Source: Candidatus Woesearchaeota archaeon (GTDB lineage Archaea; Nanobdellota; Nanobdellia; Pacearchaeales; GW2011-AR1). From it: a stretch of DNA of 49,184 bases. Both the position numbers and the translations under genes were made by a program. The stretch is from NCBI GenBank assembly GCA_964530945.1, contig CAZHCJ010000004.1:1-49184 (forward strand). The letters are read 5' to 3'. The notes under the pieces were generated by a model that ran no database searches, was not told the DNA's origin, and saw nothing but the letters and a program-made list of their open reading frames with translations. This document shows positions 1-19,530 of the stretch, piece by piece (within the stretch, counting starts at the first letter, position 1; every line of letters starts with the position of its first letter).

Positions 1-194
1 TTCTATGTTCATCATCTCTTAATTTAAATTCTCCTAATTTTGTAGCTGTTTTAACTTTATTTATATTCATAAAAAAAGCAGGTTTTCTGAACTTAAAAAA
101 CTATCTAAAAAGACCAATTAAGGTAACAATGTAGACTTGCCGAAATATTTATAAACCTAAATTTTTTTAGTTAAACACTTGAAACATTTAATCG

Positions 195-283
195 TAAAAC
201 AATAAAAATGGCTAAAGAAAACTTGATGTTTTCTAACACCATTTTAAACAAAACAATAAAACAATAAAAATGGCTAAAGAAAA
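195..283 (+). repeat. 27-bp direct repeat of the tuf start region (195-221, 257-283) with a hairpin element at 212-239
   Basis: TAAAACAATAAAAATGGCTAAAGAAAA occurs twice, 62 bp apart; hairpin AGAAAAC-TTGAT-GTTTTCT. Confidence 0.9.
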
Positions 284-1556
284 ACCAAACATGAACGTTG
301 TCTTTGTCGGACACGTTGACGCAGGAAAATCCACAATTGTCGGAAGGACTCTCTTTGATAGCGGTGCTGTTCCTGAGCAAGAAATGAAGAAACTTAAAGA
401 AGAAGCTGACAAGCACGGTAAATCAGGATTTGAGTTTGCGTACATTATGGACAAGATTAAAGAAGAGCGTGAACGCGGAGTTACTATTGATTTAGCTTAT
501 AAGAAAATTCTAACAGATAAATACGAAATCACAATTATTGATGCACCTGGACACAGAGACTTTGTTAAGAACATGATTACTGGTGCAAGTCAAGCAGATG
601 CTGCTTTCTTGGTTATTGCGGCTCCAGCAGGAGTTCAACCTCAAACCACAGAACACTTATGGTTGTTGAGAACTGCGGGCGTTAAGCAGATCGCAATTGC
701 TATTAACAAGATGGATGCTGTAGATTACAAAGAAGACAAATTTAATAGTGTAAAAGAAGAAGTTACAAAATTACTTAAAGGGGTTGGAATGAAAGCTGAA
801 GAAATCCCATTCATTGCTTGCTCCGGATTAAAAGGAGATAATGTTTTCAAAAAATCAGAGAATATGCCTTGGTATAAGGGCGCGACAATAAAAGAGCAGT
901 TTGACACATTCCCTGAACCTAAATTGCCTACTGACTTGCCAATGAGAATGCCTGTTCAGGATGTTTATGAAATCACAGGGATTGGAACTGTGCCTGTAGG
1001 AAAAGTTGTTACAGGGATTATGAAAATAGGACAAAAAGTTAAGGTATTGCCAGGGAGAACTGGAAAAGGAATTGATGGAGAGGTTAAAACCATAGAAGCT
1101 CACCATGAACAACTTCAACAAGCTGATGCCGGAGATAATGTTGGAATCAATGTAAGAGGAGTAGGTAAGAAAGACATCGCTCGTGGAGATGTTATTTGTG
1201 CAGCTGACAACCCTGTTCCTGTTGTCGAAGAATTTACTGCCACAATCACAGTTATTAATCATCCAACTGTTTTGGCTAAAGGATACACTCCTGTGTTCCA
1301 TGTACATACAGCTCAAGTACCGTGCCAAATAGTAGATATTGTAGCAAAAATTAATCCTGCTTCAGGAGAAGTTATTGAGGAAAGCCCAGACTTTTTGAAA
1401 AATGGGGAGAGCGCAAAGGTTAAAATTAAGCCACAAGGTAACTTATGCCTTGAGACAGTTAAAGAAAATCCTTCAATGGCAAGATTCTCTATTAGAGATG
1501 CGGGGCAAACCGTTGCTGCCGGAGTTTGCAACGAAATCACAAAGAAGAAAGAGTAA
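270..1556 (+). CDS. tuf: Translation elongation factor EF-1 alpha
   Basis: GHVDAGKST, ERERGVTI, DAPGHRDFVKNMITGASQAD and NKMD motifs; 428 aa. Confidence 0.98.
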   Translation: MAKEKPNMNVVFVGHVDAGKSTIVGRTLFDSGAVPEQEMKKLKEEADKHGKSGFEFAYIMDKIKEERERGVTIDLAYKKILTDKYEITIIDAPGHRDFVKNMITGASQADAAFLVIAAPAGVQPQTTEHLWLLRTAGVKQIAIAINKMDAVDYKEDKFNSVKEEVTKLLKGVGMKAEEIPFIACSGLKGDNVFKKSENMPWYKGATIKEQFDTFPEPKLPTDLPMRMPVQDVYEITGIGTVPVGKVVTGIMKIGQKVKVLPGRTGKGIDGEVKTIEAHHEQLQQADAGDNVGINVRGVGKKDIARGDVICAADNPVPVVEEFTATITVINHPTVLAKGYTPVFHVHTAQVPCQIVDIVAKINPASGEVIEESPDFLKNGESAKVKIKPQGNLCLETVKENPSMARFSIRDAGQTVAAGVCNEITKKKE

Positions 1557-1705
1557 TTTTAAGATAATTTTTATTATAGATATTCAGGTAGTTAATTTTG
1601 GTTTTTTATGAATATTTAATATCATTTATTCTAGAACTTCTAAATCTAGGAATATGAACGCTTAGAACCAACAATCCTTAAATAAGGTTATACTTTTTAT
1701 TTACC

Positions 1706-2266
1706 ATGTTAAAGCCAGGAATGTCTAAAAGCGAAATTGAAAAAGCCATTGAAGATAAAGGAGATTTTGTTAAAATAGATTGGCTTACTAGGTTTCTTAA
1801 AAAAGGTTCGCCGTCAAGAGACATCAGAATTTTTGTTTATCAGAAACTTGCGGAAATTTACGAGAAGAAATTCCTGTATGGAGAAGCTGCCGAGGCATAT
1901 GAAAATATTGGAATGAATATGATAAGATATACTGATAAAATAAAGTATTATATGAAAGAGGCTGAAATCTGGATTTTAAAAGGAGAATTTGAAAAAACAG
2001 ATAAAGCACTTAGGCGCGCATTGAACGAGGCTAATGCCGCGCAAAAGAAGGAAATTTACTCTGAGATGAAAAATCTTTATCTTACACAAGCTAAAAAATA
2101 TGAAAAGAATATGAAAACACATAATGCCCTAAGGATATATGAAAAGCTTAATCAGATGGGCTTGGAGGATTCAGAAAGACGGGAGGTTAGAGAAAAACTC
2201 ATTGAATTGTATGAAAAATTTGGAAAGTTCAAGGATGCCGAAAAAATTAGAAATTTGATGGGTTAA
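1706..2266 (+). CDS. TPR/alpha-helical repeat protein
   Basis: Helical repeats of the LAEIYEK...EAAEAYE type; TATA-like box upstream. Confidence 0.7.
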   Translation: MLKPGMSKSEIEKAIEDKGDFVKIDWLTRFLKKGSPSRDIRIFVYQKLAEIYEKKFLYGEAAEAYENIGMNMIRYTDKIKYYMKEAEIWILKGEFEKTDKALRRALNEANAAQKKEIYSEMKNLYLTQAKKYEKNMKTHNALRIYEKLNQMGLEDSERREVREKLIELYEKFGKFKDAEKIRNLMG

Positions 2267-2607
2267 GCCGCAAGAGTTTTTCTTTTATTATAGTCTAAAA
2301 CTATCCATCCATAATCTCCAGAAATCCCTGATCCTACCACTCTTGAACCTTTCTTACCATATTCAAAAGCTTCTCTCATTTTCTCATCTTTTAAATCATA
2401 AACTCTTGAAGAAGTGTTGCTTGAAAAATCCCATGAAAGAATTTTTCCTGGAAGCTCTAAAAAATCAAAAAAACCTTCTGCATCCTCATCCCTAAAACTT
2501 GCCCCGAGACCAAACCAATCTTCCATATGGGGCTCATACCTCACAGCATCAACTAATTGTGAAACAGAAAGTCTTCTCATTTCTTCTCTCCTATCTTTTT
2601 CTTCCAT
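2263..2607 (-). CDS. Hypothetical protein
   Basis: 114-aa ATG ORF with upstream TATA-like box; no recognised motif. Confidence 0.6.
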   Translation of the reverse strand: MEEKDRREEMRRLSVSQLVDAVRYEPHMEDWFGLGASFRDEDAEGFFDFLELPGKILSWDFSSNTSSRVYDLKDEKMREAFEYGKKGSRVVGSGISGDYGWIVLDYNKRKTLAA

Positions 2608-2823
2608 TTTTAGTAAAAGTTTAAGTGTTTTATAAAAATTATTGCGTTTTAGAATAACTTACCCAAAAAGCTTAAAAAGCATGTAAATCTTAAAAGGTTA
2701 GTAGAAAAGTATCACTGCATTATCACATTCACACTTATTATTTGTGTAAAATCTACTTGACGCTCCAAGGAGTGGTGGGTTTATTAGATATTTTTCTATG
2801 TAATTAAATTGAATGGAGGAAAA

Positions 2824-2851
2824 ACAATGAAAATTGAAAATTTTCAAGCAT
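2824..2851 (+). repeat. 28-bp hairpin element (dnaG leader copy)
   Basis: ACAATGAAAA-TTGAAAA-TTTTCAAGCAT; arms identical to the copy at 7999-8026 (minus strand). Confidence 0.85.
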
Positions 2852-2875
2852 TTGAATCCCAAAAGGAAATCAAAA

Positions 2876-4042
2876 ATGGCTAAAATAAGTCCTGCATCTA
2901 TCAAGTATATGATACATGCAACATTTAGAATAGAAGGCGCACTAGAAAAGCCAGATGTAATCGGAGCCATATTCGGGCAAACTGAAGGTTTACTTGGAAG
3001 CGATTTGGAAATGCGTGAATTGCAAAAAGAAGGAAAAATAGGTAGAATAGAAGTTGAACTCGAAAGAAACAAGAGAATAACTACCGGAACAATAAAAGTT
3101 CCTACCGCTCTAGACCAATCTGAGACAACGCTTATTGCTGCTGCTTTGGAAACCATAGAAAAAATGGGTCCTGCAGATTCTCAAATAGAGATAGAAAGAA
3201 TTGAAGATGTTCGTGGCAGTAAAAGAGACTATATTATTGAAAGAGCAAAGAAACTGATGGGAAACATTAGTTCTGAAACAGATTCTAGAGAGATAAGCAA
3301 AGAAATCAAAGAATCTGTTAAGACCTCAGCAATACAAAAATATGGTAAGGAAAATTTGCCTGCCGGAGATATTTCTAGCAAGGAAATAGTGGTTGTTGAA
3401 GGGCGTGCAGATGTCTTAAACCTTTTGCGAGCAGGTGTTGAGAACGCAATAGGAATGAACGGAACAAAGCTTCCTGATGCTGTAAGAGATCTGACAAAAG
3501 AGAAAGAAACAACTTTATTTGTTGATGGCGATAGGGGAGGAAAGCTTATTGTTAAAAATGTTGTAGACAACGCAGAAATTGATTATATCGCTTTTGCTCC
3601 GGATGGTAAGGAAGTTGAAGAACTTAGTGGAAAGGAAATCCTTCAATGTTTGAGGAAAAAAATTTCTATTGAAGAATACACTAAAAATGTAAACCGAAAT
3701 AGAAAAAAGTACGATAGAAAAGACCAAAGCAAAAGTGATGAAAAGGCAAAAAAAGTAGAACTTACCAGCGAGCTCAGAAGTAACTTGGAAAAGAAGTTTG
3801 AAGAGAATAAAGGAAGTGGAAAAAGTGTTTTTTTAGATGACTCTCTGAAAGAGTTCAAAAAGGTTTCATCTAAAACAACATCAAGAGTTTTAAGAAAATT
3901 AAGAAGAAAACCTTCTATCATCGTGATTGACGGGACTGCAACAAAGAATATTCTTGAATCTGCTGAAGAAGCCGGTACGAGTATTGTTGTAGCAAAGACT
4001 TTCACTTCTACAGATGCAAATTTAGAACTATTGAGTTTTTAA
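2876..4042 (+). CDS. dnaG: Archaeal DnaG-type primase / exosome-associated TOPRIM protein
   Basis: KPDVIGAIFGQTEGLLG..LE.RELQK.GKIGRI; TOPRIM VVVEGRADV and DGDRGG; start moved to ATG 2876 (MAKISP). Confidence 0.95.
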   Translation: MAKISPASIKYMIHATFRIEGALEKPDVIGAIFGQTEGLLGSDLEMRELQKEGKIGRIEVELERNKRITTGTIKVPTALDQSETTLIAAALETIEKMGPADSQIEIERIEDVRGSKRDYIIERAKKLMGNISSETDSREISKEIKESVKTSAIQKYGKENLPAGDISSKEIVVVEGRADVLNLLRAGVENAIGMNGTKLPDAVRDLTKEKETTLFVDGDRGGKLIVKNVVDNAEIDYIAFAPDGKEVEELSGKEILQCLRKKISIEEYTKNVNRNRKKYDRKDQSKSDEKAKKVELTSELRSNLEKKFEENKGSGKSVFLDDSLKEFKKVSSKTTSRVLRKLRRKPSIIVIDGTATKNILESAEEAGTSIVVAKTFTSTDANLELLSF

Positions 4043-4073
4043 AACTCAATAGTCTTTTATTTTTATATTTGAA

Positions 4074-4331
4074 ATGGAAATTAAAGAAATTTTAAAGATT
4101 GCTAAGGGGAAAGGTATTCGTTGTGAACTAGATGGGAAAGAAGTTAAAGTATTTGTTGAGAGAAATCTTGAATTAAAAATATATCCTAAAACAAGAACGG
4201 CAGAATTTTTAGAAATTGATTACGAGTGGAGTGAATTGGAGCACGCTGTAAGGAATAGATATTCCGAATACCCTGAGATGGTTGTTTTAACAGATTTATT
4301 AAACGCTGGAGGATATGATATTATATGGTAA
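4074..4331 (+). CDS. Hypothetical protein
   Basis: 85-aa ORF overlapping the start of the next gene. Confidence 0.6.
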   Translation: MEIKEILKIAKGKGIRCELDGKEVKVFVERNLELKIYPKTRTAEFLEIDYEWSELEHAVRNRYSEYPEMVVLTDLLNAGGYDIIW

Positions 4332-5116
4332 TAAAAATAGGTCCTTCTGGTTTAGGAGGTGTTAAAGAAGCTGTTGCAAAACTTGAACGTTATCACAAGC
4401 TTGGATTTAAAGCGTGTGAAATAGCGTTTACCTATGGAGTATATATTAAAGAAGAACGTGATGCCCTGGAAATAGGGGCTAAAGCTAAAGAACTTGGGAT
4501 AGATTTAACAATTCATGGACAATACTGGATTAATCTTAACTCCAATGATGAAGAAAAGATAGAAAAAAGTAAGGAACGCATTCTTAAATGTTTGAAAGTA
4601 GGAACTTGGTTGAGTGCAAAACGGGTCATATTCCATCCGGGCTTTTATAGCAAAATGAGTCCAGAAGAAACTTATGAAAACATAAAATCCAACATTTTAG
4701 ATATAATGAAAACAGCTAAAACAAAAGGTTACACTCCAAAACTTGCCCCTGAAATTATGGGCAAAGTAAATGTTTTTGGTAGTATTGACGAAATCTTTAA
4801 ACTGAAAAAAGAAACTGGTTGTGACATGTGCATAGATTTCGCGCATATTTTGGCAAGATATAAAGAATACAAATTTGATGAGACTTTAAACAAAGTTAAA
4901 AAAGCGAAAATGGACAATATCCATATCCATTTCTCAGGAATTGTTTATGGAGAAAAAGGTGAGAAAAAACACAAACAAGCGACCCAAAAAGAGTGGGAAA
5001 TGTTATTAAATAAGTTAAATAAGAACGTTCCCGAATTAGAAATAACTGTCATCAGTGAGAGTCCAAACCCTATAAAAGATGCAAGTCTTGCAAACAAGAT
5101 TTTTAGTAAGATTTGA
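4325..5116 (+). CDS. Endonuclease IV-like (AP endonuclease 2) TIM-barrel protein
   Basis: HGQYWINLNS, FHPG, APEIMGK, CIDFAH and HIHFSG metal-ligand motifs. Confidence 0.88.
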   Translation: MVIKIGPSGLGGVKEAVAKLERYHKLGFKACEIAFTYGVYIKEERDALEIGAKAKELGIDLTIHGQYWINLNSNDEEKIEKSKERILKCLKVGTWLSAKRVIFHPGFYSKMSPEETYENIKSNILDIMKTAKTKGYTPKLAPEIMGKVNVFGSIDEIFKLKKETGCDMCIDFAHILARYKEYKFDETLNKVKKAKMDNIHIHFSGIVYGEKGEKKHKQATQKEWEMLLNKLNKNVPELEITVISESPNPIKDASLANKIFSKI

Positions 5117-5155
5117 ATTTAGAGAGTTAAAAATATTCAGACAGCGACGCTATTT

Positions 5156-5205
5156 ACTGTATGTTACTCACACATGGTTGTTTCAAACTGAATGTGACTC
5201 ACACA
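5156..5205 (+). promoter_or_regulatory. Tandem 19-bp operator-like repeat upstream of the TATA box at ~5247-5254
   Basis: ACTGTATGTTACTCACACA (5156-5174) and ACTGAATGTGACTCACACA (5187-5205); core palindrome TGTGA-C-TCACA. Confidence 0.55.
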
Positions 5206-5319
5206 CAGTACCATTGTAACTTCATAATTACGACAATACCATAAAGTTTATAAACACACTCCAAGTTGTTTTTATACATGGAAACAAAGTTTCCCGAATT
5301 AAATAAAAACAGACGCAAA

Positions 5320-6561
5320 ATGGATATGAAAAGAATATTGGTTTCTTTTCTGATAGTGGCAAGTTTTGTTTTGCTTACCTCTGTTGCAAGCGTAAGTGCT
5401 TCACCTATCGCAACCGGAGATACTTTTACAAGTGTTGAGGTTGATGGAATTCAATTAGGTGCTAGTGGAAATCCCGCAATAACTGCTGGAGAATCTATTA
5501 GAGTTAGAGTGGAATTTGACGCTGCTGTAAACGCACAAGACGTTACATTGGAAGTAGAACTTGAAACTAGCGATGAAGATCCTGAAGCTGAAACTCGTCC
5601 TTTTGTCATTGAATCTGGCAATTCTTATGCTAGAACTTTGATGTTGGATGTGCCTGTAGACCTTGACGATGAGCTTAGTGATTTTGTTACTCTCAATATA
5701 GAGATTAGCAATGATGGCTATAGCACTGAAGAAAGCTACACTTTGAGGCTTCAAAGGGAATCTTACAAAACAGACTTACAGTCTGTGAGAGTTCCTCAAA
5801 CTGTTGATGCAGGAAAAACTTTCCCTGTAGATATAGTTTTAGAGAACATCGGTTACAACGATCTTGAAGATGTGTATGTAACTGCAAGTATCCCTGCATT
5901 AGGAATTGAACGTACTGAATTTTTCGGAGATATCGTTGCAATAGAATGTGACGACTCATATAACTCTGAAAAAAACTATGGTGTTGACATCGAAAGAAAG
6001 TGTAATGAAGATGATGAAGATACTGTTGTAGGAAAGCTTTTCCTTAATGTGCCTTTCGATGCGGAATCTGGACTATATGCTCTTGACGTAAGTGTTGAAA
6101 ACGATGACACTTTCTCAAGCAAAACAGTCCAAGTTAAGATAGATAACGCATTTTCTGGAGGAAACTTCATTGTTTCAGGTAGCCAACTTCTAATCGTTAA
6201 CCCTACAAACGATGTTGTTGTTTACAGACTTGTTCCGGTGAATACTGCAAGCACAAGTGTTAGCTTAAGTGAAGGCCTTGTTGCCGTACCTGCTGGTTCA
6301 AGCAAGATGGTTTCTACAAGTGCCAGTTCTTCTCTTGGAGATACATTTACATACTCTGTAAATGTTTTCAGCTCTGACGGAAAGCTTGTTGACGCAGTTC
6401 AATTTACAAGCACTTCTGATGGAAGAAATGACGCCACTTCAAACCCAATTGTTGTACTTACAATTATACTTGCAATCATCTTCGTGGTGTTGCTTGTTGT
6501 ATTGATAGTATTGATTGGAAAGAAACCTAAACAAGAAGACTTCGGCGAAAGTTATTACTAA
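5320..6561 (+). CDS. Secreted, C-terminally anchored acidic surface (S-layer-like/Ig-like) protein
   Basis: Signal peptide MKRILVSFLIVASFVLL, acidic beta-rich body, C-terminal TM helix; start uncertain (5278, 5320 or 5326). Confidence 0.75.
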   Translation: MDMKRILVSFLIVASFVLLTSVASVSASPIATGDTFTSVEVDGIQLGASGNPAITAGESIRVRVEFDAAVNAQDVTLEVELETSDEDPEAETRPFVIESGNSYARTLMLDVPVDLDDELSDFVTLNIEISNDGYSTEESYTLRLQRESYKTDLQSVRVPQTVDAGKTFPVDIVLENIGYNDLEDVYVTASIPALGIERTEFFGDIVAIECDDSYNSEKNYGVDIERKCNEDDEDTVVGKLFLNVPFDAESGLYALDVSVENDDTFSSKTVQVKIDNAFSGGNFIVSGSQLLIVNPTNDVVVYRLVPVNTASTSVSLSEGLVAVPAGSSKMVSTSASSSLGDTFTYSVNVFSSDGKLVDAVQFTSTSDGRNDATSNPIVVLTIILAIIFVVLLVVLIVLIGKKPKQEDFGESYY

Positions 6562-6680
6562 CTTTCCCTTATTTTTTATTTTTTATTTTTTCTTTAAATT
6601 TTATTTTTTTAAGAACAAGCTGAAAGTGTGTTAAATTTCTAATATGGTATCACTCTAAAATTATGAAATGTCCTAAATAA

Positions 6681-7292
6681 TCACTCCCCTTCTATCAAAG
6701 GAACAAACCTAAACCCAGAAAATTCTTGGATTTTGTTCTCATTTGTAAAACGCTGTATTTGAAGAATTGAGTTTCGCACTGGCACAACTAAAATGCCTCC
6801 GATTTTAAGCTGTCGGACAAGCTTGCTTGGAATTTCATCGGCCGAGGCACTTACAATAATCCTATCGAAAGGAGCTTTGTCTGGCAAGCCTTTGCTCCCG
6901 TCCCCATGAATGACTTCTATATTGAATTTGTTTTTTAATTCTTCACGAGAACGCTCTGCCAACTCTTCAACGCGTTCAATTCCGTAGAGTTCCGCATTAT
7001 CAAGAATTTCATCAAGCAGAGCTAGAACATAACCCGAACCCGAGCCAACTTCAAGGAGTTTTTGTTTGTTTTTGCTTTCTGGCTCGAGCTTTAAGAGTGA
7101 AAGCATGAAAGCGATTGTGTAAGGCTGACTTATCGTTTGACCTTTGCCTATAGGCAATGCGGTGTCTTCATAAGCCATTGTTTTGGAAATTTTAGGTATG
7201 AACTTTTCGCGCCGGACTTTTTCAAAAGCCTTGACAATTCTTTCAGAGAAACCTTGTTGTTTTAAACTACGTATAAGTTCTTCTTTGTTCAT
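6681..7292 (-). CDS. pcm: Protein-L-isoaspartate O-methyltransferase
   Basis: AYEDTALPIG.GQTISQP, LEVGSGSGY, APFDRI, FVPL. Confidence 0.95.
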   Translation of the reverse strand: MNKEELIRSLKQQGFSERIVKAFEKVRREKFIPKISKTMAYEDTALPIGKGQTISQPYTIAFMLSLLKLEPESKNKQKLLEVGSGSGYVLALLDEILDNAELYGIERVEELAERSREELKNKFNIEVIHGDGSKGLPDKAPFDRIIVSASADEIPSKLVRQLKIGGILVVPVRNSILQIQRFTNENKIQEFSGFRFVPLIEGE

Positions 7293-7333
7293 ATAAATAT
7301 AAAGAAAACTTTATTTAAAAATTTTAAACAAAA

Positions 7334-7750
7334 TTAGTTATCAAAATCTTTCAAACTAATGACATTTGGTATTTTTACCAACTTTCTATCTGCCGTAATT
7401 AATTCCGTTTTGTGTGTTTGTGCTAGCGCCACATATAAGGCATCATAGATTGTTATGTCGTATTTTGCAGAGTTTTTAATTGCTTTTGATAATAGGTCTT
7501 CGTATAGATTGGTTATTTTAAGATTTAATCCGAAAACATTTTTATTAACTCTTACAAGTTCATTTTCATCTTGTTTACCATATCTGAGAGCATTTGATAT
7601 CTCTAAAAATATTAGGCTCGGTGCCATTAGTTTTAATTCTTCATTCAAAAATAAATTTTTTAAATTTCTGGCTTTATCAGAATTCTCTTCATTAAGAAAC
7701 CATTTAACAGCAACAGAGGCGTCTATTACTAATGTCTTTTGTCTCTCCAT
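7334..7750 (-). CDS. vapC: PIN-domain VapC-family toxin
   Basis: VIDASVAVKW, E.SNAL, TIYDALYVALA, LITAD. Confidence 0.9.
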   Translation of the reverse strand: MERQKTLVIDASVAVKWFLNEENSDKARNLKNLFLNEELKLMAPSLIFLEISNALRYGKQDENELVRVNKNVFGLNLKITNLYEDLLSKAIKNSAKYDITIYDALYVALAQTHKTELITADRKLVKIPNVISLKDFDN

Positions 7751-7974
7751 TCTCTTATTATTTGGGTACTATCTTTTTCGCTGTCAAAAATACCAGATTT
7801 TCTAATTTTATCTATATCTTCGCTAGCTTTTCTTCTCTTTTCCATTTTTTTCTGATCTTCTAGTGTTTCAACTATGGCATTCCTTAATATAACACTCCAA
7901 TTTATTTCTTCACGAGATTTCATTTTTTCTTTCAAATTTTTGCTAACCCTTAAAGAAATTACTTCATCTTTCAT
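7729..7974 (-). CDS. RHH-type VapB antitoxin
   Basis: VISLRV...INWSVILR..I pattern and IIREWRD tail; overlaps the vapC start. Confidence 0.8.
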   Translation of the reverse strand: MKDEVISLRVSKNLKEKMKSREEINWSVILRNAIVETLEDQKKMEKRRKASEDIDKIRKSGIFDSEKDSTQIIREWRDKRH

Positions 7975-7998
7975 TGTATTAAATTTTCATAAATTTAA

Positions 7999-8026
7999 AT
8001 GCTTGAAAATTCTTGATTTTCATTGT
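7999..8026 (-). repeat. 28-bp hairpin element (antitoxin leader copy)
   Basis: Minus strand ACAATGAAAA-TCAAGAA-TTTTCAAGCAT; TACAATGAAA duplicated at 8018-8027 and 7969-7978. Confidence 0.85.
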
Positions 8027-8041
8027 AATACATGTAATACA
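8024..8041. promoter_or_regulatory. Probable antitoxin operator
   Basis: Tandem palindromic TGTAATACA-TGTAATACA just downstream of the minus-strand TATA box. Confidence 0.5.
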
Positions 8042-8064
8042 TTTAGATATATAAACCTTTCTAG

Positions 8065-10929
8065 CTAAATCTCCAAACTAATTATCTTGCTTATGCCGTC
8101 GTGCATGCTAACTCCATAAAGGCTCGTGGCGTTGCTTATAACCTCGTCATTGTGCGTTATAACAATATACTGGCCCTTTTTCATGTACTTTGTTAAAAGT
8201 CCTGCAAGCCTTTGAGAGTTTCGTTTGTCAAGTGCAGCATCCACCTCATCGAGAAGATAAAAGTAATACGGATTGTATTCTTGTATAGCAAAAATAAGTG
8301 CCAATGCCACAAGGGTTTGTTCCCCTCCAGACAATGATTTTACATCAAAGTATTTTCCATGCCCGGTTTTGACTATTATGTTTAAGCCAGCAGAAAAAGG
8401 GTCTTTTCTGTTTTCTAATTCAAGATAAACCTGTCCTTTACTACTTAACTGAGCAAAATTGCGGGTAAATATCTCATTAACTTTTTCCATTGTTTCCATA
8501 AACGCCTTCTTTTTCTTTTTATCAATCTCTTCAATAACTTTCATTATATTCTCTTTTTCTTTTTCTATAGTTTCTGCTTTTAGCTTAATGCTGTCATATT
8601 CCCTCTTAACGCTGTCATAAACCTCAAGGCTACGAAGATTCACGTTGCCTATGCCATCTAGTATTTGTTGGGCTTTTGCTAAACGACGCTCTAATTTTTC
8701 TTTTTTGGTTTTGATTACATTTATATTTGGAAACTCTAGTAATTCGGTTTTAAGGTTTTCAATACTTGCATCCACTCCTGCTTTACTTATCTTTAAATCA
8801 TTAATTTTTTGCTCTATGTTTCTAAACGCATTCTCTTGATTTGAGACTTCAATTTCATTATCTCTAATGTTAGATTGAAGTTTTTCTCTTTCGGCAATCA
8901 AAGATTTATAACGTTCATTGAGTTCTTTTTCTTTTTCTTTCTTTTCAGACAAAATCTTTTCTTTATTTTGGATGGAATCTTCTAAACTCTTCAAAGTTTC
9001 ACCAAGCTCTGAAGCATTTCTTTTCAAATCTTTCAAAGTTACCTTTAGGCGTTCAACTTGACGTTCTTTAAAACTAATTTCTGAGCTGACACTTTCTTTT
9101 GTTCTTAAAGAAACTTCTTCAATTTCTATCTTTAAATTCTCATAGCGTTTTTCGACGTTTGCAATTTCGCTCACGCGTTCAGAAAGTTGTTTTTTTCTAT
9201 TCCTTAGTTTTTCTATTTCTTCCCTTAATTTCTCTATCTTCTCTTGAGTGTTCTTTATCTGATTTTTTTTATCCTCTACCTTGCCCAATTTTCCTAAATC
9301 GGATTCTGTTTTTTGAATTTCATCATTTAATTGTTCTATATCTCTTTCTAAAATTTCTTTTTTCTGATAAATATTTTTTAGTTGATTATCAGAATCTTTG
9401 ATTTTCTTTTCCAAAGACTCGATTTTTGGATATATATCTCCATGAATCTCATCCATGTGCTCAGGAGTTATCTTGCTCTTACAAACAGGGCAAATGTCAA
9501 GCTTTGAAATTTTATCGATAATCTTCTTTTGACTATCTATCTCTGCCTCGTTTAATGTTGTTTGGCGTTCCGTTTTTGCTTGCTTGGATAAAAGCGTTTT
9601 CAAATTTTCACGCTTTTCTGCCAGCGTTGCCCTGAGATTTTTAAGTTTCTCTTGATTTGAGCGTTTGTCATGAATCTCTATCGAAAGCTGTTCTATTTGC
9701 TTTAATAAGAAATCTGACTCCTTGTTATAATTTTGAAAGGTTTCGGTTTTGTCCTCAACTACGCTTTCTAACGACTTAAGCTCTGATTTCATCATATAAA
9801 GGCGTTTACGAGTATTCTCAAGCTTATCTAATTCTTTCTTCTTTTCATTAATCTCTTTGAGTTTCTTTTCGGAAACAGAGCCGCCTTTGCTTTTCTGTAA
9901 AGATTTAAGTTCTTCTTCTCCTTGTTCTATTGAAGTCTTAATTTCTTTTCTTTGGTTTTGAATATCTTGTATTTTGCTTTCTTGATTCTCTAGACGTACT
10001 CTCAATCCAGTAAGTTCTGCTCTCAGGTCTGCAATCTCTTGGTTTATTTTCTCTTGCTCTAAACCTGTTTCTTCTTGTATTTTGGAGTTGATATTAGAAA
10101 TTTTTTCTTGTGCGGATTTTATGTTAGATTGTGTGCTTGCAATATTCTTCTTTATTTTTTCTACTTCTTTATTATGTTTTTGGATGTCTTTATTTATGCC
10201 TTCAAGATTTTTTTCTTTTTGTCTTAAATCGGCGCTAATTATACTCGCTTTGAAAACTTTAATGTCTTTCTTCAATTTCTTATAACGCAATGCTTGCTTA
10301 CGTTCTTTTTCAAGATTATTCAGATAACTTGTTCTTTCCCTTAAAACGGAACTTATCTCTTTTAACCTATCATCTGTCTTCTCTAGCTCTCTGAGAGATT
10401 TCTTTTTCCTGGACTCGTAAATAGATATTCCAGAAACCTCTTCTATCACTTCTCGCCTTTCCTCAGGATGCTTTTGAACAAAATTTTGAATCTCGCCTTG
10501 CAAAACAATGTTAAAACCTTGAGGGTCTATTCCTGCCTGAGCCAAAAGTGCCAGGACTTCTTGGCGTGTTTTTGTTTTGCCATCTATCTTGTATGTACTT
10601 TGACCACTTTTCTTAACTATTCTTTTAACAGAAACTTCTTTCTTGTCTGTGGAAAAAACATTTTCTGAATTATCTAAAATGAGTTCTACTGAAGCTTGTT
10701 TAGCGGGCCCTGCTTCTTTGCTTCCCATAAAGATTAAATTTTTTGCTTTTGCCGCCCTAAGTGATTTTATGCTTAAGCGTCCTAAGACAAAACATATTGC
10801 ATCGCTGATGTTGCTCTTGCCAGAGCCATTCGGCCCAAGAATTACGTTTATTCCTTGAGTAAAGGGCACCTCTGTTTTGCGCGGAAAGCTTTTGAACCCG
10901 TGCATCACCAATTTTTTTATGTATGTCAA
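8065..10929 (-). CDS. smc: SMC-family chromosome segregation ATPase with central CxxC motif
   Basis: GFKSF, GPNGSGKSN, LSGGE..LVALALIFAIQ, LDEVDAALD; long coiled coils; CPVC at aa 480-483; TTG start. Confidence 0.88.
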   Translation of the reverse strand: MTYIKKLVMHGFKSFPRKTEVPFTQGINVILGPNGSGKSNISDAICFVLGRLSIKSLRAAKAKNLIFMGSKEAGPAKQASVELILDNSENVFSTDKKEVSVKRIVKKSGQSTYKIDGKTKTRQEVLALLAQAGIDPQGFNIVLQGEIQNFVQKHPEERREVIEEVSGISIYESRKKKSLRELEKTDDRLKEISSVLRERTSYLNNLEKERKQALRYKKLKKDIKVFKASIISADLRQKEKNLEGINKDIQKHNKEVEKIKKNIASTQSNIKSAQEKISNINSKIQEETGLEQEKINQEIADLRAELTGLRVRLENQESKIQDIQNQRKEIKTSIEQGEEELKSLQKSKGGSVSEKKLKEINEKKKELDKLENTRKRLYMMKSELKSLESVVEDKTETFQNYNKESDFLLKQIEQLSIEIHDKRSNQEKLKNLRATLAEKRENLKTLLSKQAKTERQTTLNEAEIDSQKKIIDKISKLDICPVCKSKITPEHMDEIHGDIYPKIESLEKKIKDSDNQLKNIYQKKEILERDIEQLNDEIQKTESDLGKLGKVEDKKNQIKNTQEKIEKLREEIEKLRNRKKQLSERVSEIANVEKRYENLKIEIEEVSLRTKESVSSEISFKERQVERLKVTLKDLKRNASELGETLKSLEDSIQNKEKILSEKKEKEKELNERYKSLIAEREKLQSNIRDNEIEVSNQENAFRNIEQKINDLKISKAGVDASIENLKTELLEFPNINVIKTKKEKLERRLAKAQQILDGIGNVNLRSLEVYDSVKREYDSIKLKAETIEKEKENIMKVIEEIDKKKKKAFMETMEKVNEIFTRNFAQLSSKGQVYLELENRKDPFSAGLNIIVKTGHGKYFDVKSLSGGEQTLVALALIFAIQEYNPYYFYLLDEVDAALDKRNSQRLAGLLTKYMKKGQYIVITHNDEVISNATSLYGVSMHDGISKIISLEI

Positions 10930-11100
10930 TTTATTTCCTTTTTATTTAATCGTCATGCTCGAAAATTTCTTGTTTTCGTTGTATGTCAATTTATTTCCTT
11001 TTTATTTAATCGTCATGCTCGAAAATTTCTTGTTTTCGTTGTATGTCATTTTTTCTGGAAAATTCATGCTCGAAAATTTCTTGTTTTCGTTGTATGTCAT
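10920..11100 (-). repeat. Tandem repeat array upstream of smc (units 60, 60, 51 bp; 36-bp identical core x3)
   Basis: TCATGCTCGAAAATTTCTTGTTTTCGTTGTATGTCA at 10953-10988, 11013-11048 and 11064-11099. Confidence 0.95.
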
Positions 11101-11208
11101 TTTGATCCTATTTTTTAATGAAAAATGACTTGCTTAAAAATCTTTGATTTTTATTAGGTGTCATCTTTATACAGAATTAGAGGATAATTAGTTTTTTAAA
11201 ATTGTTTA

Positions 11209-17460: not shown

Positions 17461-18507
17461 CTAAGGGGTTTTTAATTTTCTTTTTAACCCATTTATTTCT
17501 TTAGTAAAATCTCTTCTTAAATTATATGTATCTGCCCACATAGAGTAAGCGTTCCAACCCTGGAAAATTTCACTTATTTTCTTTTTAGAAATCTGTTTTC
17601 TTGAAAAACATTTTATCTTGTTTTCCATGCTTTTGATATTTCTTTTTCTTGGTAATTTAAAATAATAAAAATTTCTGAATCCAACGAAATCCGTGCCTTT
17701 AGACAAAAAATTTATCTTTGATTTATCAGAATGTAATTCAAGTTTTAATCTTTCTTTCAAAAATTCATTAATTCTTCTTTTCCACTCTTTTAATTGAAAT
17801 TTTGATTTGTGTAAAACAATAAAATCATCAACATATCTTACATAATGCTTGGCTTTTAGGTTATGTTTGAGAAACAAATCTAATTCATGAAGATAAACGT
17901 TGGCAAAAAACTGGCTAGTAAGATTGCCCAAAGGTAATCCTTTATTCTCTGAACTATTAACTTGTGTGTCCGTCTCTCTGATGACACGTTTAATCAACCA
18001 AATAACTTTTTCATCTTTAATTTTTCTTCCAATCAAATTAATTAAAATGTTGTGATTTATTTCATGAAAATAATGTTTTATGTCTGCCTTTAAACAATAT
18101 CCATAAGAAGAAAAATTATCTGTTACTTTTCTTCTAAATTTTTCAAATCTTTTTGTAGCAAATAAATTTCCTTTATTTTTTCTATTGGCACAAGAGTTAT
18201 AAATAAACGTTTTATCGAAAATAGATTCAATAACATTACAGATTGCGTGATGCACTATTCTATCACGAAAATCAGATTTAGATATTTTGCGAGTTTTTGG
18301 ATCACGTAAAATAAATGTTTCGAGAGGCTTTGGCTTATATGTTTGAGTTTTTAATTCGTTTTGAAGTTTCTCTAGATTCAATTCTAAATTCTTCTCAAAT
18401 CTTTTAACGTAACTTTTCTTTGTTTTGCCTTTTCTTGCATTCAAAAAAGAAAGGAACAAATTTTCCGTAGAATAAATTTCAGAATAAAGATTCTTGTGAG
18501 TTTTCAT
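17461..18507 (-). CDS. DGR reverse transcriptase
   Basis: DPKTR.I, FRDRIVHHA, KADIKHYF, GLPLGNLTSQFFANVYL, YVRYVDDF, DFVGF. Confidence 0.97.
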   Translation of the reverse strand: MKTHKNLYSEIYSTENLFLSFLNARKGKTKKSYVKRFEKNLELNLEKLQNELKTQTYKPKPLETFILRDPKTRKISKSDFRDRIVHHAICNVIESIFDKTFIYNSCANRKNKGNLFATKRFEKFRRKVTDNFSSYGYCLKADIKHYFHEINHNILINLIGRKIKDEKVIWLIKRVIRETDTQVNSSENKGLPLGNLTSQFFANVYLHELDLFLKHNLKAKHYVRYVDDFIVLHKSKFQLKEWKRRINEFLKERLKLELHSDKSKINFLSKGTDFVGFRNFYYFKLPRKRNIKSMENKIKCFSRKQISKKKISEIFQGWNAYSMWADTYNLRRDFTKEINGLKRKLKTP

Positions 18508-18514
18508 TTTTATG

Positions 18515-18772
18515 TGTCTTAGTAGCTAAAGCCATTCCGAAAGCATGAGTGTTCGCATCGTCGCCATGTTCGTTGGAATTAACGTTAAGCCTATTACCCT
18601 TCCAATTGGAGTCAAGCGAAGCACTTGTGTAGCCAACTTACCAATTACCACCATAACTTCAACTTTCACAAATAATAGATATAAACCGCTACTAATTGTC
18701 GTTATTGAATTTTACTAAATAAATTAGCGTGTGGCCTTAGCCTGAAAGTTTTTAAAAACTTCAACTAAGACA
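18515..18772 (-). ncRNA. Predicted structured DGR template RNA enclosing TR
   Basis: 18764-18772 pairs with 18515-18523, and 18732-18742 with 18524-18534; hairpin at 18743-18763; TATA-like box at ~18792-18799. Confidence 0.6.
18537..18622 (-). repeat. DGR template repeat (TR)
   Basis: 86-bp ungapped match to 18845-18930; all 14 mismatches at TR adenines (minus strand); AAT/AAC-rich. Confidence 0.97.
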
Positions 18773-18801
18773 AATGTATGAATAAAGAATATTTTAAAAA
18801 A

Positions 18802-19530
18802 TTACTCATTTTTAGCGCGCGTGCCTTCGGCACTATCTAACACCCCGAAAGCATGAGCGTCCGCATCGACGCCAAGTTCGTAGGAACCAACGAGAAGCCC
18901 ATCACCCTCCCAATCGGAGACAAGCGAAGCTATTTTTGTAGTAGGTTCTTTTAATTCTGAAACATTTGGAACCCATATATAAGCTTCTCTTTTTGAATGT
19001 TTTGAAGCTAATTCAGCAATTTTTTCTGCGCCTTCTTCTCCTGCCCAAGCAACAAAATAAGGATTTTTTGCAACTTCTCTCCAAGGAACAGAACCTTGTC
19101 TCAAATGTTCAAAGCTAACACTTTCTCTAGCTTCTTCAATTCTTGATTGTAAATCACGTGTAATAACATAACTATTTTCATTAAACTCTAAATCTCCGTC
19201 AATGAAATGGGCTAAACCTTCTCCATTATCTTCAGGAACGTAAAGAATCTCCGTAAATCCTCTGAGATATCTACTCTTCATTATCTCTTGTACTTCTTGG
19301 GCTTGAGGTTCATTTCCATTAAAATATTCATGAACAAAAGAAGCGACTTCTGGAGCTGTGGGTTCTCTAAATCCATCTTGTCTGATATTCTCTAAAAGTG
19401 TTTTAGAATTTGCATGGCCATAAAAAGGGTGAACTGCTGTTAAAATCTTTCCTTCGTGAGAAAAGTCCATTTCCGTTCTTCCGACCCTTACTCTTTCTCT
19501 TGTTTCAGTTTGATTTGTCATGTTTTTCAT
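18802..19530 (-). CDS. DGR target (variable) protein
   Basis: C-terminal VR (ASLVSDWEGDGLLVGSYELGVDADAHAFG); R.PT..E motif consistent with a CLec-like fold (inference). Confidence 0.92.
   Translation of the reverse strand: MKNMTNQTETRERVRVGRTEMDFSHEGKILTAVHPFYGHANSKTLLENIRQDGFREPTAPEVASFVHEYFNGNEPQAQEVQEIMKSRYLRGFTEILYVPEDNGEGLAHFIDGDLEFNENSYVITRDLQSRIEEARESVSFEHLRQGSVPWREVAKNPYFVAWAGEEGAEKIAELASKHSKREAYIWVPNVSELKEPTTKIASLVSDWEGDGLLVGSYELGVDADAHAFGVLDSAEGTRAKNE
18821..18833 (-). promoter_or_regulatory. DGR homing hairpin
   Basis: GTGCC-GAA-GGCAC about 12 nt 3' of VR. Confidence 0.85.
18845..18930 (-). repeat. DGR variable repeat (VR)
   Basis: Matches TR; 3' ends diverge as IMH TCGGGGTG vs IMH* TCGGAATG. 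Confidence 0.97.

Follow-up and report, generated by a model that had tools for sequence, protein, structure and literature searches.

Several kinds of short repeat are known to settle in or beside genes. In bacteria, repetitive extragenic palindromic (REP) sequences, together with bacterial interspersed mosaic elements (BIMEs), REPINs and REP-associated tyrosine transposases (RAYTs), form a system of short palindromes with conserved flanks and mosaic hairpin modules, which stand between cistrons and, often as inverted pairs, at 3' ends in tens to hundreds of copies and have a likely effect on the mRNA. Miniature inverted-repeat transposable elements (MITEs), including the promoter-bearing Correia elements of Neisseria, are small, non-autonomous and able to provide the gene behind them with signals for expression. 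Rickettsia palindromic elements (100-150 bp) lie in frame inside open reading frames (ORFs) as part of the protein, and quasi-palindrome template-switch mutagenesis, like inverted-duplication rearrangement, leaves a direct and an inverted copy of a short local segment whose arms are kept complementary. Highly similar upstream regions before unrelated genes, across taxa, are reported as promoter reuse in prokaryotes in the abstract of PMC3575422. Here we describe a hairpin element at gene starts in a Candidatus Woesearchaeota archaeon (GCA_964530945.1; 598 kb in 26 contigs, 34% G+C; genome G000 below). It was found on contig CAZHCJ010000004.1 (C4), whose 49,184 nucleotides (nt) constitute the window of this study. 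With a confidence slightly above even, we propose that it represents a family of ~35-65-nt non-autonomous, mosaic, palindromic leader cassettes that are inserted at gene 5' ends and rebuild the start codon, and that are tolerated or used by way of a short upstream open reading frame (uORF) ending at the real start.

The motif ACAAYGAAAA-N7-TTTTCRAGCAT had five zero-mismatch matches in the window, namely at 2824-2851 (+) upstream of dnaG, at 7999-8026 (-) upstream of a putative antitoxin gene, and at 10955-10982, 11015-11042 and 11066-11093 (-) upstream of smc. Shuffled sequence contained 0.02 matches on average and none of 100 shuffles reached five. Across 401 genomes of the order the pattern matched 55 times (31 genomes), compared with 3 matches for its reverse, and these two controls rule out chance or low complexity as its source. 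A covariance model (R1) detected eight copies in the genome at E < 1e-4: the five pattern matches, 11124-11159 (-) in the window, C9:856-891, which stands before rpl18e-rpl13-rps9, and C3:52666-52700. All copies listed in the first-pass annotation were present at the coordinates it had given. Its description of the element as dispersed holds in that copies exist elsewhere in the genome (C9, C3), but R1 found only the eight, of which six fall within 8.4 kb of the window. It had also thought that a weaker match at 11130-11157 might just be the smc promoter. This was not borne out, as 11124-11159 is an older fourth copy upstream of the smc array, reading TAAAAATC-AAA-GATTTTTA-AGCAA (R1 E 2.6e-5, 30.1 bits), with a compensated G-C to A-T change in its stem.

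Comparison of orthologous tuf, dnaG, rpl18e and smc leaders from up to 30 genomes of the genus revealed both filled and empty sites at all four genes, as would be expected of the insertion that had been proposed. In the closest relative, G012, the tuf leader consists of a TATA-like box, 22 nt and ATGGCTAAAGAAAAACC, with no insert. G016 has the same box and spacing, followed by ATGGCTAAAGAAAA, a 49-nt insert with a hairpin, and then ATGGCTAAAGAAAAACC again; its insert is the same as the one in the window (222-269, +; L099 empty, L100 filled). Related inserts follow ATGGCTAAG in G017 and G018, two in tandem follow ATGGCTAAA in G019, and two follow ATGCCTA in G007. At all filled tuf sites, the insert comes after ATGGCTAA or ATGCCTA. 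The leader of G023 is nearly identical to that of G017 apart from the insert, which it lacks. When an exact match of 8 nt was required, 6 of 28 usable leaders had an upstream copy of the tuf start; this criterion misses G007 and gives an ambiguous match in G002.

In the window itself, the gene for EF-1alpha starts at 270 (270-1556, +; GTP_EFTU 9.9e-55, GTP-eEF1A_C 9.9e-33), and 195-221 is exactly repeated at 257-283 (27 nt, spacing 62), as had been claimed. The decoy start ATGGCTAAAGAAAA (208-221, +) lies within this repeat and, according to the relatives' leaders, occupies the original start position. Further upstream, 172-207 (+) may be a degenerate first unit of a leader array, ACTTGAAACATTTAATCGTAAAACAATAAAA, which by eye against G016 and G012 resembles the tail of the following insert. 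An inverted repeat (205-222 and 228-245; 18 nt, 78% complementary) is predicted to form a long imperfect hairpin at 205-245 (+), AAAAUGG..AGAAAAC / GUUUUCU..CCAUUUU, in which the decoy AUGG is paired to CCAU, and its right arm could pair equally with the second copy at the real start (267-283). At 37 C the tuf leader had a minimum free energy (MFE) of -12.2 kcal/mol (z-score -3.7; 0 of 200 shuffles as stable). The tuf copy, which had been noted as more diverged, was missed by R1 even at E ≤ 10.

With regard to dnaG, GGAGG(T)AAAAA-ATGGCAAAAATAAGT is uninterrupted in relatives. In the window, the ancestral Shine-Dalgarno-like GGAGG and the original ATG (2827-2829), now the start of a uORF, lie at 2815-2829 (+); the core at 2824-2851 (R1 E 6.2e-14) comprises ACAA, the hairpin TGAAAATT-GAA-AATTTTCA (2828-2846) and AGCAT; and a second, weak hairpin with a duplicated Shine-Dalgarno-like AAAGGAAATCAAAA occupies 2852-2875 (+), as judged from relatives and folding. 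The real ATG follows at 2876, and the stop of the uORF (2827-2883) falls shortly behind it. The downstream gene encodes DnaG (Toprim). This arrangement of core, second Shine-Dalgarno-like stretch and ATG was shared by G000 and G012 only, of 30 leaders read, whereas ten other genomes have different small perfect palindromes elsewhere in the dnaG leader. The degenerate start copy noted here in the first-pass annotation is real, and it is visible solely by comparison with relatives.

The rpl18e site is filled in G000 alone among 22 leaders: the gene start recurs there in diverged form as ATGGAAATAAAGCA, and the core, 26 more bases and the real start come after it, while in G012 and the other 20 a conserved structured leader runs straight into ATGAAR. 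In the smc leader of most relatives, AATCTTTAAAAAC is followed by about 22 nt and then the ATG. The H1 array was seen in G000 only; in the window it extends over 10920-11103 (-) as three units of 60, 60 and 51 nt (tandem period 60 nt, 3.2 copies, 89% matches). Each unit consists of TTG/ATGACATACA, a copy of the gene start, then a hairpin CGAAAA..TTTTCG and AGCAT, and the real TTG start is at 10929. Exact upstream copies of the first 8 nt of smc occurred in 2 of 28 usable leaders, in G000 at 60 and 120 nt and in L085 at 10 nt; in the leaders L070, L085 and L078, an upstream ATG is followed by an insert of a different kind. Upstream of the putative antitoxin gene (real ATG 7974; core R1 E 3.7e-12), the start region 7969-7984 recurs at 8018-8033. 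The duplication claimed there is present, but at 16 nt, 88% identity and a spacing of 49 it is longer than had been reported. This 81-aa gene lacks a Pfam match of its own, overlaps a PIN-domain gene (PIN 2.6e-16, 7337-7750), and is a putative antitoxin by its position next to it.

Across the three closest genomes, G000, G012 and G016, the element is distributed as a mosaic (tuf +, -, +; dnaG +, +, -; rpl18e +, -, -), for which several gains or losses are needed.

These leaders and genes have other features in their own right. Perfect short palindromes without a duplicated start are found in many relatives' dnaG and tuf leaders, and their arms change with compensation between genomes; examples are TGAAATCA-TTA-TGATTTCA and TAAAGTCA-TTT-TGACTTTA at dnaG and AAAATTCTT-N3-AAGAATTTT between the TATA-like box and the ATG of tuf. 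About 100 nt upstream of dnaG, ATCACATTCAC(R)TTCAC is kept across the genus (window about 2718-2740; loci L039-L067). All 22 genus leaders of the rpl18e-rpl13-rps9 operon contain a conserved CCTGCGAGTTAA(T)CGCG(N)TAGC(A/G)GGA and a second small stem (G000 C9:760-830; L129-L155), which together look like a ribosomal-protein leader. The smc product (954 aa, 8068-10929, -) matches SMC_N at 3.8e-51, has no hinge-domain match, and shows a weak Rad50 zinc-hook match around a CPVC motif (3.5e-4, below the cut-off); it may be Rad50-like instead of a true SMC. In G012 (C6) and G016 (C12), the two closest relatives, an SMC-like gene forms a ~1500-aa frame in which the N-terminal 36-46 residues match at a distance from the remainder, a layout that would suit an intein or some other insertion behind the P-loop; G000 lacks this feature.

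Within the family, R1 (E ≤ 1e-4) detected the element in 39 of 151 genomes and 35 of 112 genera, with 1-15 copies per genome. A same-strand ORF starts within 60 nt downstream of 83 of 120 copies, compared with 15 of 120 in the mirrored test, which agrees with the enrichment at gene starts that had been predicted, and 37 of the 120 directly follow the stop of an upstream same-strand ORF, i.e., they stand between cistrons. We classed 94 distinct downstream ORFs, many of them cut by the end of the fetched stretch. Ribosomal proteins accounted for 20, RNA-polymerase subunits or TFS for 5 and GTP_EFTU-domain factors for 2, while 27 had no Pfam match. The other 40 included SMC, ScpB, gyrase A, two proteasome alpha subunits, RNase J, FttA, DnaJ, Hjc and small DNA-binding or antitoxin proteins. 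Near-identical cores stand before unrelated genes in different genera. The suggestion of a shared 5' leader module was also supported.

Alignment of 35 distinct copies from this and other genomes defined the core as ACAA, a near-perfect, A/U-rich 8-bp stem with a 3-nt loop and its return arm, and AGCAT. The search pattern had fixed GAAAA/TTTTC and left the closing and innermost pairs free. The closing position held U-A in 27 copies and C-G in 7, with one copy unpaired; at the innermost position, U-A occurred in 14, C-G in 12 and G-C in 1, and 8 copies were unpaired. Among the 55 pattern matches of the order, all 12 copies with AACG had TTTTCG, and no copy with AATG had it. A larger set consists of model-fitted copies, hence is biased towards the model, and gave UA 72, CG 25, AU 13 and other 6 at pair 1, GC 100 and AU 11 at pair 2, and UA 43, CG 38, GC 3, UG 1 and other 29 at pair 8. 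Covariation is thus seen at three stem pairs, and that of the closing pair (T-A, C-G, A-T) reported for the window extends well beyond it. Stems are nearly mismatch-free across copies. The hairpin lacks an ATG in 38 of 118 cores, which read ACG..CG (25) or AAG..CU (13), each with the compensating change. Because of these compensating pairs, we conclude that it is the hairpin itself that is conserved, and not its internal ATG or the peptide MKIxNFQAF. That peptide was rejected as the selected feature on account of these ACG and AAG cores and of the smc copies, in which a different frame runs through the core.

Beyond the core, a recurrent plan was observed across genomes: a decoy start, the hairpin, AGC(N)T, a stretch complementary to the gene start (hereafter the anti-start), an A-rich or Shine-Dalgarno-bearing spacer, and the real start. 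This decoy may be the internal ATG of the hairpin; otherwise it is an ATG that stands 9-10 nt ahead of the hairpin and opens a copy of the gene's first codons. The original start, with 0-50 nt of following or preceding sequence, stays upstream as this decoy, and the left hairpin arm often overlaps or contains its ATG. Counting from the start codon, an exact gene-start copy of at least 10 nt was found at the decoy in 15 of 108 copies, compared with 0.6% when copies and gene starts were mismatched; with the threshold lowered to 8 nt, the values were 19% and 5%. The start region of the gene that a copy precedes was perfectly complemented over at least 7 nt within the 18 nt behind the hairpin in 34 of 69 copies, compared with 16% for the start regions of other copies (at least 9 nt: 17 of 69 and 5%). 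Examples are ATGGAAAA...TTTTCCAT (L184), ATGGAT...ATCCAT (L253) and the common form CATTTAAATTTC...GAAATTTAAATATG. The observed start duplications measured 7, 8-9, 10, 14-16, 27 and 54 nt, the longest in L017. The earlier proposal of an insertion that rebuilds translation starts is thus upheld as to the insertion, its position and the duplicated start, but a range of 7-54 nt is unlike the fixed duplication of a transposase. The element may target starts, as had been suggested, or may only be retained there.

In other genera, tandem arrays of 2-5 units precede genes for S27ae, NifU, a methionine aminopeptidase-like protein and smc (L037, L165, L184, L220), and another array occurs in L183. A tail complementary to the smc start, AGCATGTCAA, is found at smc (L173, L220) and also before Hjc and HerA-like genes (L168, L231, L233), which suggests, on sequence comparison, that copies moved from gene to gene. 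In some copies the core and the start are separated by two or three additional conserved hairpins, common to the genera of G169 and G422. In L201, L205 and L228 (G422, G169), the leaders are ~130-150 nt long and consist of the core and three hairpins (GTCAGAAATCC..GGATTTCTGA, CCATCCAAATT..AATTTGGAGG and TTTAAACACTCACG..CGTGTTTAAAT); they are ~85% identical between the two genera and stand before different genes. The first-pass annotation had described a 28-bp element, and this description needs to be replaced by a unit without two defined ends that has a 5' core (hairpin and AGCAT), a locus-specific anti-start stretch and, sometimes, more hairpin modules.

The gain or loss between closest relatives, the tandem amplification, and the near-identical cores before unrelated genes in different genera together indicate that the core is spread by some copy-and-insert or recombination process and not by vertical descent alone. 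The first-pass annotation had suggested a REP/MITE-like element and a search for an HUH (RAYT/TnpA) transposase; the link to REP/RAYT found no support. The Y1 HUH transposase (PF01797) had no match in G000, G422, G207 or G055, and across the 151 genomes Y1_Tnp was present in 13 of the 39 with the element and 27 of the 112 without it, i.e., there was no association (tallied by hand, assuming that both searches drew the same 151 genomes). The element has the short palindrome of REP sequences, with an 8-bp stem and 3-nt loop flanked by ACAA and AGCAT, as well as mosaic hairpin modules, positions between cistrons and a likely influence on the mRNA. It differs from REP, BIME and REPIN sequences in that it has 1-15 oriented copies lying at most 60 nt upstream of starts, duplicates the gene start, and is archaeal without a Y1_Tnp link. 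An origin from IS200/IS605 elements was likewise rejected: G000 has neither a Y1_Tnp nor a TnpB-type match (the latter occurred in G207 only) and duplications are present. With MITEs the element shares its small size, non-autonomy, possible expression signals, and presence or absence at orthologous tuf, dnaG, rpl18e and smc sites. Membership was rejected as there are no terminal inverted repeats at two ends and the duplication has no fixed length; the 7-54-nt duplications always include the start codon, and the 3' part differs from locus to locus, being the complement of its target. Since the defining tests of both groups failed, we file the element apart from REP/RAYT and MITEs, as a small palindromic repeat.

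Similar to Rickettsia palindromic elements, it is a palindromic repeat in essential genes of a reduced genome that does not destroy these genes; those elements sit inside the proteins, whereas the present one sits at the start and is bypassed by the rebuilt start. Reused or "mobile" promoters (PMC3575422) likewise place similar upstream regions before unrelated genes across taxa, but rest on similarity, and the abstract of that study contains no hairpin, anti-start or duplicated start. In the literature that we searched, the scope of which excluded subscription journals and supplements, no description of such an element was found. Given that the duplication length varies and that the core ATGAAAA resembles ordinary gene starts, we favour spread by recombination or template switching over a classical transposase.

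How an inserted cassette could be tolerated may be seen from its reading frames. The short uORFs that had been claimed from the upstream starts of the window leaders do read as described. Across copies, the uORF from the decoy ATG runs through the hairpins for a median of 18 codons, and in 44 of 74 copies it ends within -10 to +12 of the real start, very often at -1, at -2 or as ATGA (+4). This is the geometry of coupled gene pairs in archaea, for which termination-reinitiation, or translational coupling of overlapping genes, is described (PMC6728339, PMC10666635); unlike in such pairs, the upstream "gene" would here be an insertion-made leader of ~18 codons, and coupling is suggested by this geometry. 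Most probably, transcription would still begin at the old promoter. Ribosomes would start at the decoy, or arrive from an upstream cistron, and would translate the ~18-codon uORF through the hairpins. They would then stop at or next to the real start, and the gene would be expressed by termination-reinitiation; otherwise, the hairpin and the anti-start would fold the 5' end. Insertion into essential, highly expressed genes could thus be tolerable and possibly useful, as 5' protection or translational control.

Several observations weigh against the cassette reading. Copy numbers are low (1-15 per genome), and no mobilising gene was found in a search limited to PF01797, PF00078 and PF07282 in five genomes. 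Only the 5' 28-36 nt are conserved; tails differ between loci of one genome and there are no two defined ends. The copy at C3:52666-52700 points away from the nearest gene start. The same gene carries copies in different genera (S14, L2, L6, L24e, EF-2, smc), which also fits an old selected leader; smc, for example, also carries the element in G065 and G055, another genus. Wobble counts (G.T against A.C), by which the folding strand was to be told, conflict, with 4 and 0 in the hairpin and 0 and 12, many at one recurring position, in the second stem. Three of the four window leaders (dnaG, antitoxin, smc) folded no better than shuffles at 37 C (z-score -0.5 to -1.0; whole dnaG leader -1.0). 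In other genomes, a two-hairpin fold is regular. With regard to the uORF, early stops in the variable part affected 13 of 58 in its frame and 42 of 116 in the other two, which is not a significant difference (p 0.08). The uORF evidence is also weaker than it appears, because conservation of the core sequence by itself keeps the frame open there.

Unlikely, but still to be taken seriously, is the explanation that comes next, namely a selected cis-regulatory RNA leader (a translational operator, an RNA thermometer-like switch or a protein-binding hairpin) that serves expression-machinery genes and passes down by vertical descent with frequent loss. What looks like insertion would then be the way in which these leaders originate. 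In this view, the role of the hairpin would be to bind a factor or to determine the stability of the 5' end, while pairing of the anti-start with the real start region would be undone by temperature or by translation of the uORF. Such a leader would account for the hairpin being kept by compensation where the ATG is lost, the locus-specific complementarity to the own start region, the Shine-Dalgarno-like purines in the loop of the second hairpin, and the enrichment of machinery genes downstream. It would also fit the homologous full-length copies at S14 in three genera and the pairing options, with a tuf anti-start able to pair with the decoy or the real start and an antitoxin MFE structure that pairs the right arm of the hairpin with the real start. 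Yet only about a quarter of the genomes of the family (39 of 151) have a copy, the genes served vary by genome, and the closest relatives lack the element at tuf, rpl18e and smc; moreover, the A/U stems are weak (z-score near -1), and regulation does not readily account for arrays of 3-5 units. Rfam, searched with ten loci at E ≤ 1, gave no family match to the element, its sole match being an unrelated snoZ118 elsewhere in L001. A box C/D small RNA was rejected as most cores read AAUGAAAA with no CUGA at the unit end (by eye) and no Rfam C/D match fell at the element. A repeat of the CRISPR (clustered regularly interspaced short palindromic repeats) type, a replication-origin box and a bulge-helix-bulge intron were rejected by eye, as their defining motifs are absent.

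A bolder form of the cassette reading strikes us as rather improbable. It would make the element a new kind of mobile unit, specific for gene starts, that copies itself to the first nucleotides of often leaderless, highly expressed genes and writes inverted and direct copies of the target start by a templated process. The host would have co-opted it to switch the translation of genes for ribosomal proteins, RNA polymerase and elongation factors, in a form that can be carried from gene to gene. Were this true, every insertion would build its own decoy start, anti-start hairpin and regenerated start.

We give still less credence to a reused promoter module acting at the DNA level, in which the palindrome would be an operator or activator site, AGCA would serve as a sequence like the B recognition element and TTTAAAT as the TATA box of a leaderless start, and the arrays would be tandem promoters. 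TTTAAAT or GTAAAT directly follows AGCAT in many copies, and many copies lie within operons, where an internal promoter could matter; promoter reuse as such is described, as noted above. From the T of TTTAAAT or GTAAAT to the real ATG the distance is mostly 23-38 nt, and the native smc and tuf box lies ~29-30 nt before the ATG. In sequence reading, the TTTAAAT of the element stands 12-38 nt before the ATG, compared with ~29-30 nt for the box of native promoters of the genus, and in many duplication-type copies the TATA-like run is 12-26 nt from the ATG by eye, mostly below the native distance. A dimeric protein site would also not be expected to covary pair by pair within one genome, Shine-Dalgarno-like sequences would fall upstream of the transcript, and the locus-specific complementarity to the start region would have no role in a promoter. 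Plain tandem promoter duplication was rejected for the G016 tuf leader, whose spacer is by eye not a copy of the native upstream region. A duplication anchored at the transcription start is likewise weakened, as the antitoxin, dnaG and G000 tuf duplications reach 9-15 nt upstream of the ATG and the tuf box of G017 lies ~39 nt before it. A regulatory leader and a reused promoter module are both compatible with mobility.

Very improbable, finally, is that there is no element at all and that independent local template-switch (quasi-palindrome) and slippage mutations struck A/T-rich gene starts: in several copies the left arm is indeed the gene's own coding sequence and the right arm with "CAT" its complement (tuf AAAGAAAAC/GTTTTCT..CCAT, L184 ATGGAAAA..TTTTCCAT, L253 ATGGAT..ATCCAT, and L220 at smc), and arm-to-arm correction would keep palindromes near-perfect, but an identical 26-mer and longer modules precede unrelated genes with dissimilar starts across genera and families, the target offers no template for the AGC(N)T that separates hairpin and anti-start, and the spacer, by eye, does not copy the flank in either direct or inverted form (L210, G016). 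Template switching shares with our element the direct and inverted local copies, but leaves the conserved, non-templated core of unrelated loci unexplained.

The window also encodes a reverse transcriptase (RVT_1 3.3e-20, 17461-18507, -), which was considered as the mover of the inserts and rejected; it sits with a repeat pair of the diversity-generating-retroelement kind, and nothing was found that ties it to the inserts. The 86-nt repeats, 18537-18622 (template-like) and 18845-18930 (variable), are 84% identical, with many of the differences T-to-C on the plus strand, and the variable one is located towards the 3' end of the next ORF, which has 242 aa and no Pfam match. Together, window 17461-19530 (-) has the layout of a diversity-generating retroelement.

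For archaea with genomes of ~0.6 Mb and very few repeats, a repeat that inserts into the first codons of genes for EF-1alpha, DnaG, SMC and ribosomal proteins without killing these genes is unexpected. In annotation, the decoy start will often be chosen by gene callers, or the leader fused to the ORF; the longest dnaG open frame (2834-4042), for instance, begins at a TTG within the hairpin loop. If the cassettes are mobile, they would show that selfish DNA can live inside essential genes by rebuilding the start codon, and they would be a natural source of uORFs and structured leaders where leaderless or short-leader mRNAs prevail. If they are regulatory, they would represent a lineage-wide control element for the expression machinery of these uncultured archaea, for which, to our knowledge, no regulation is known.

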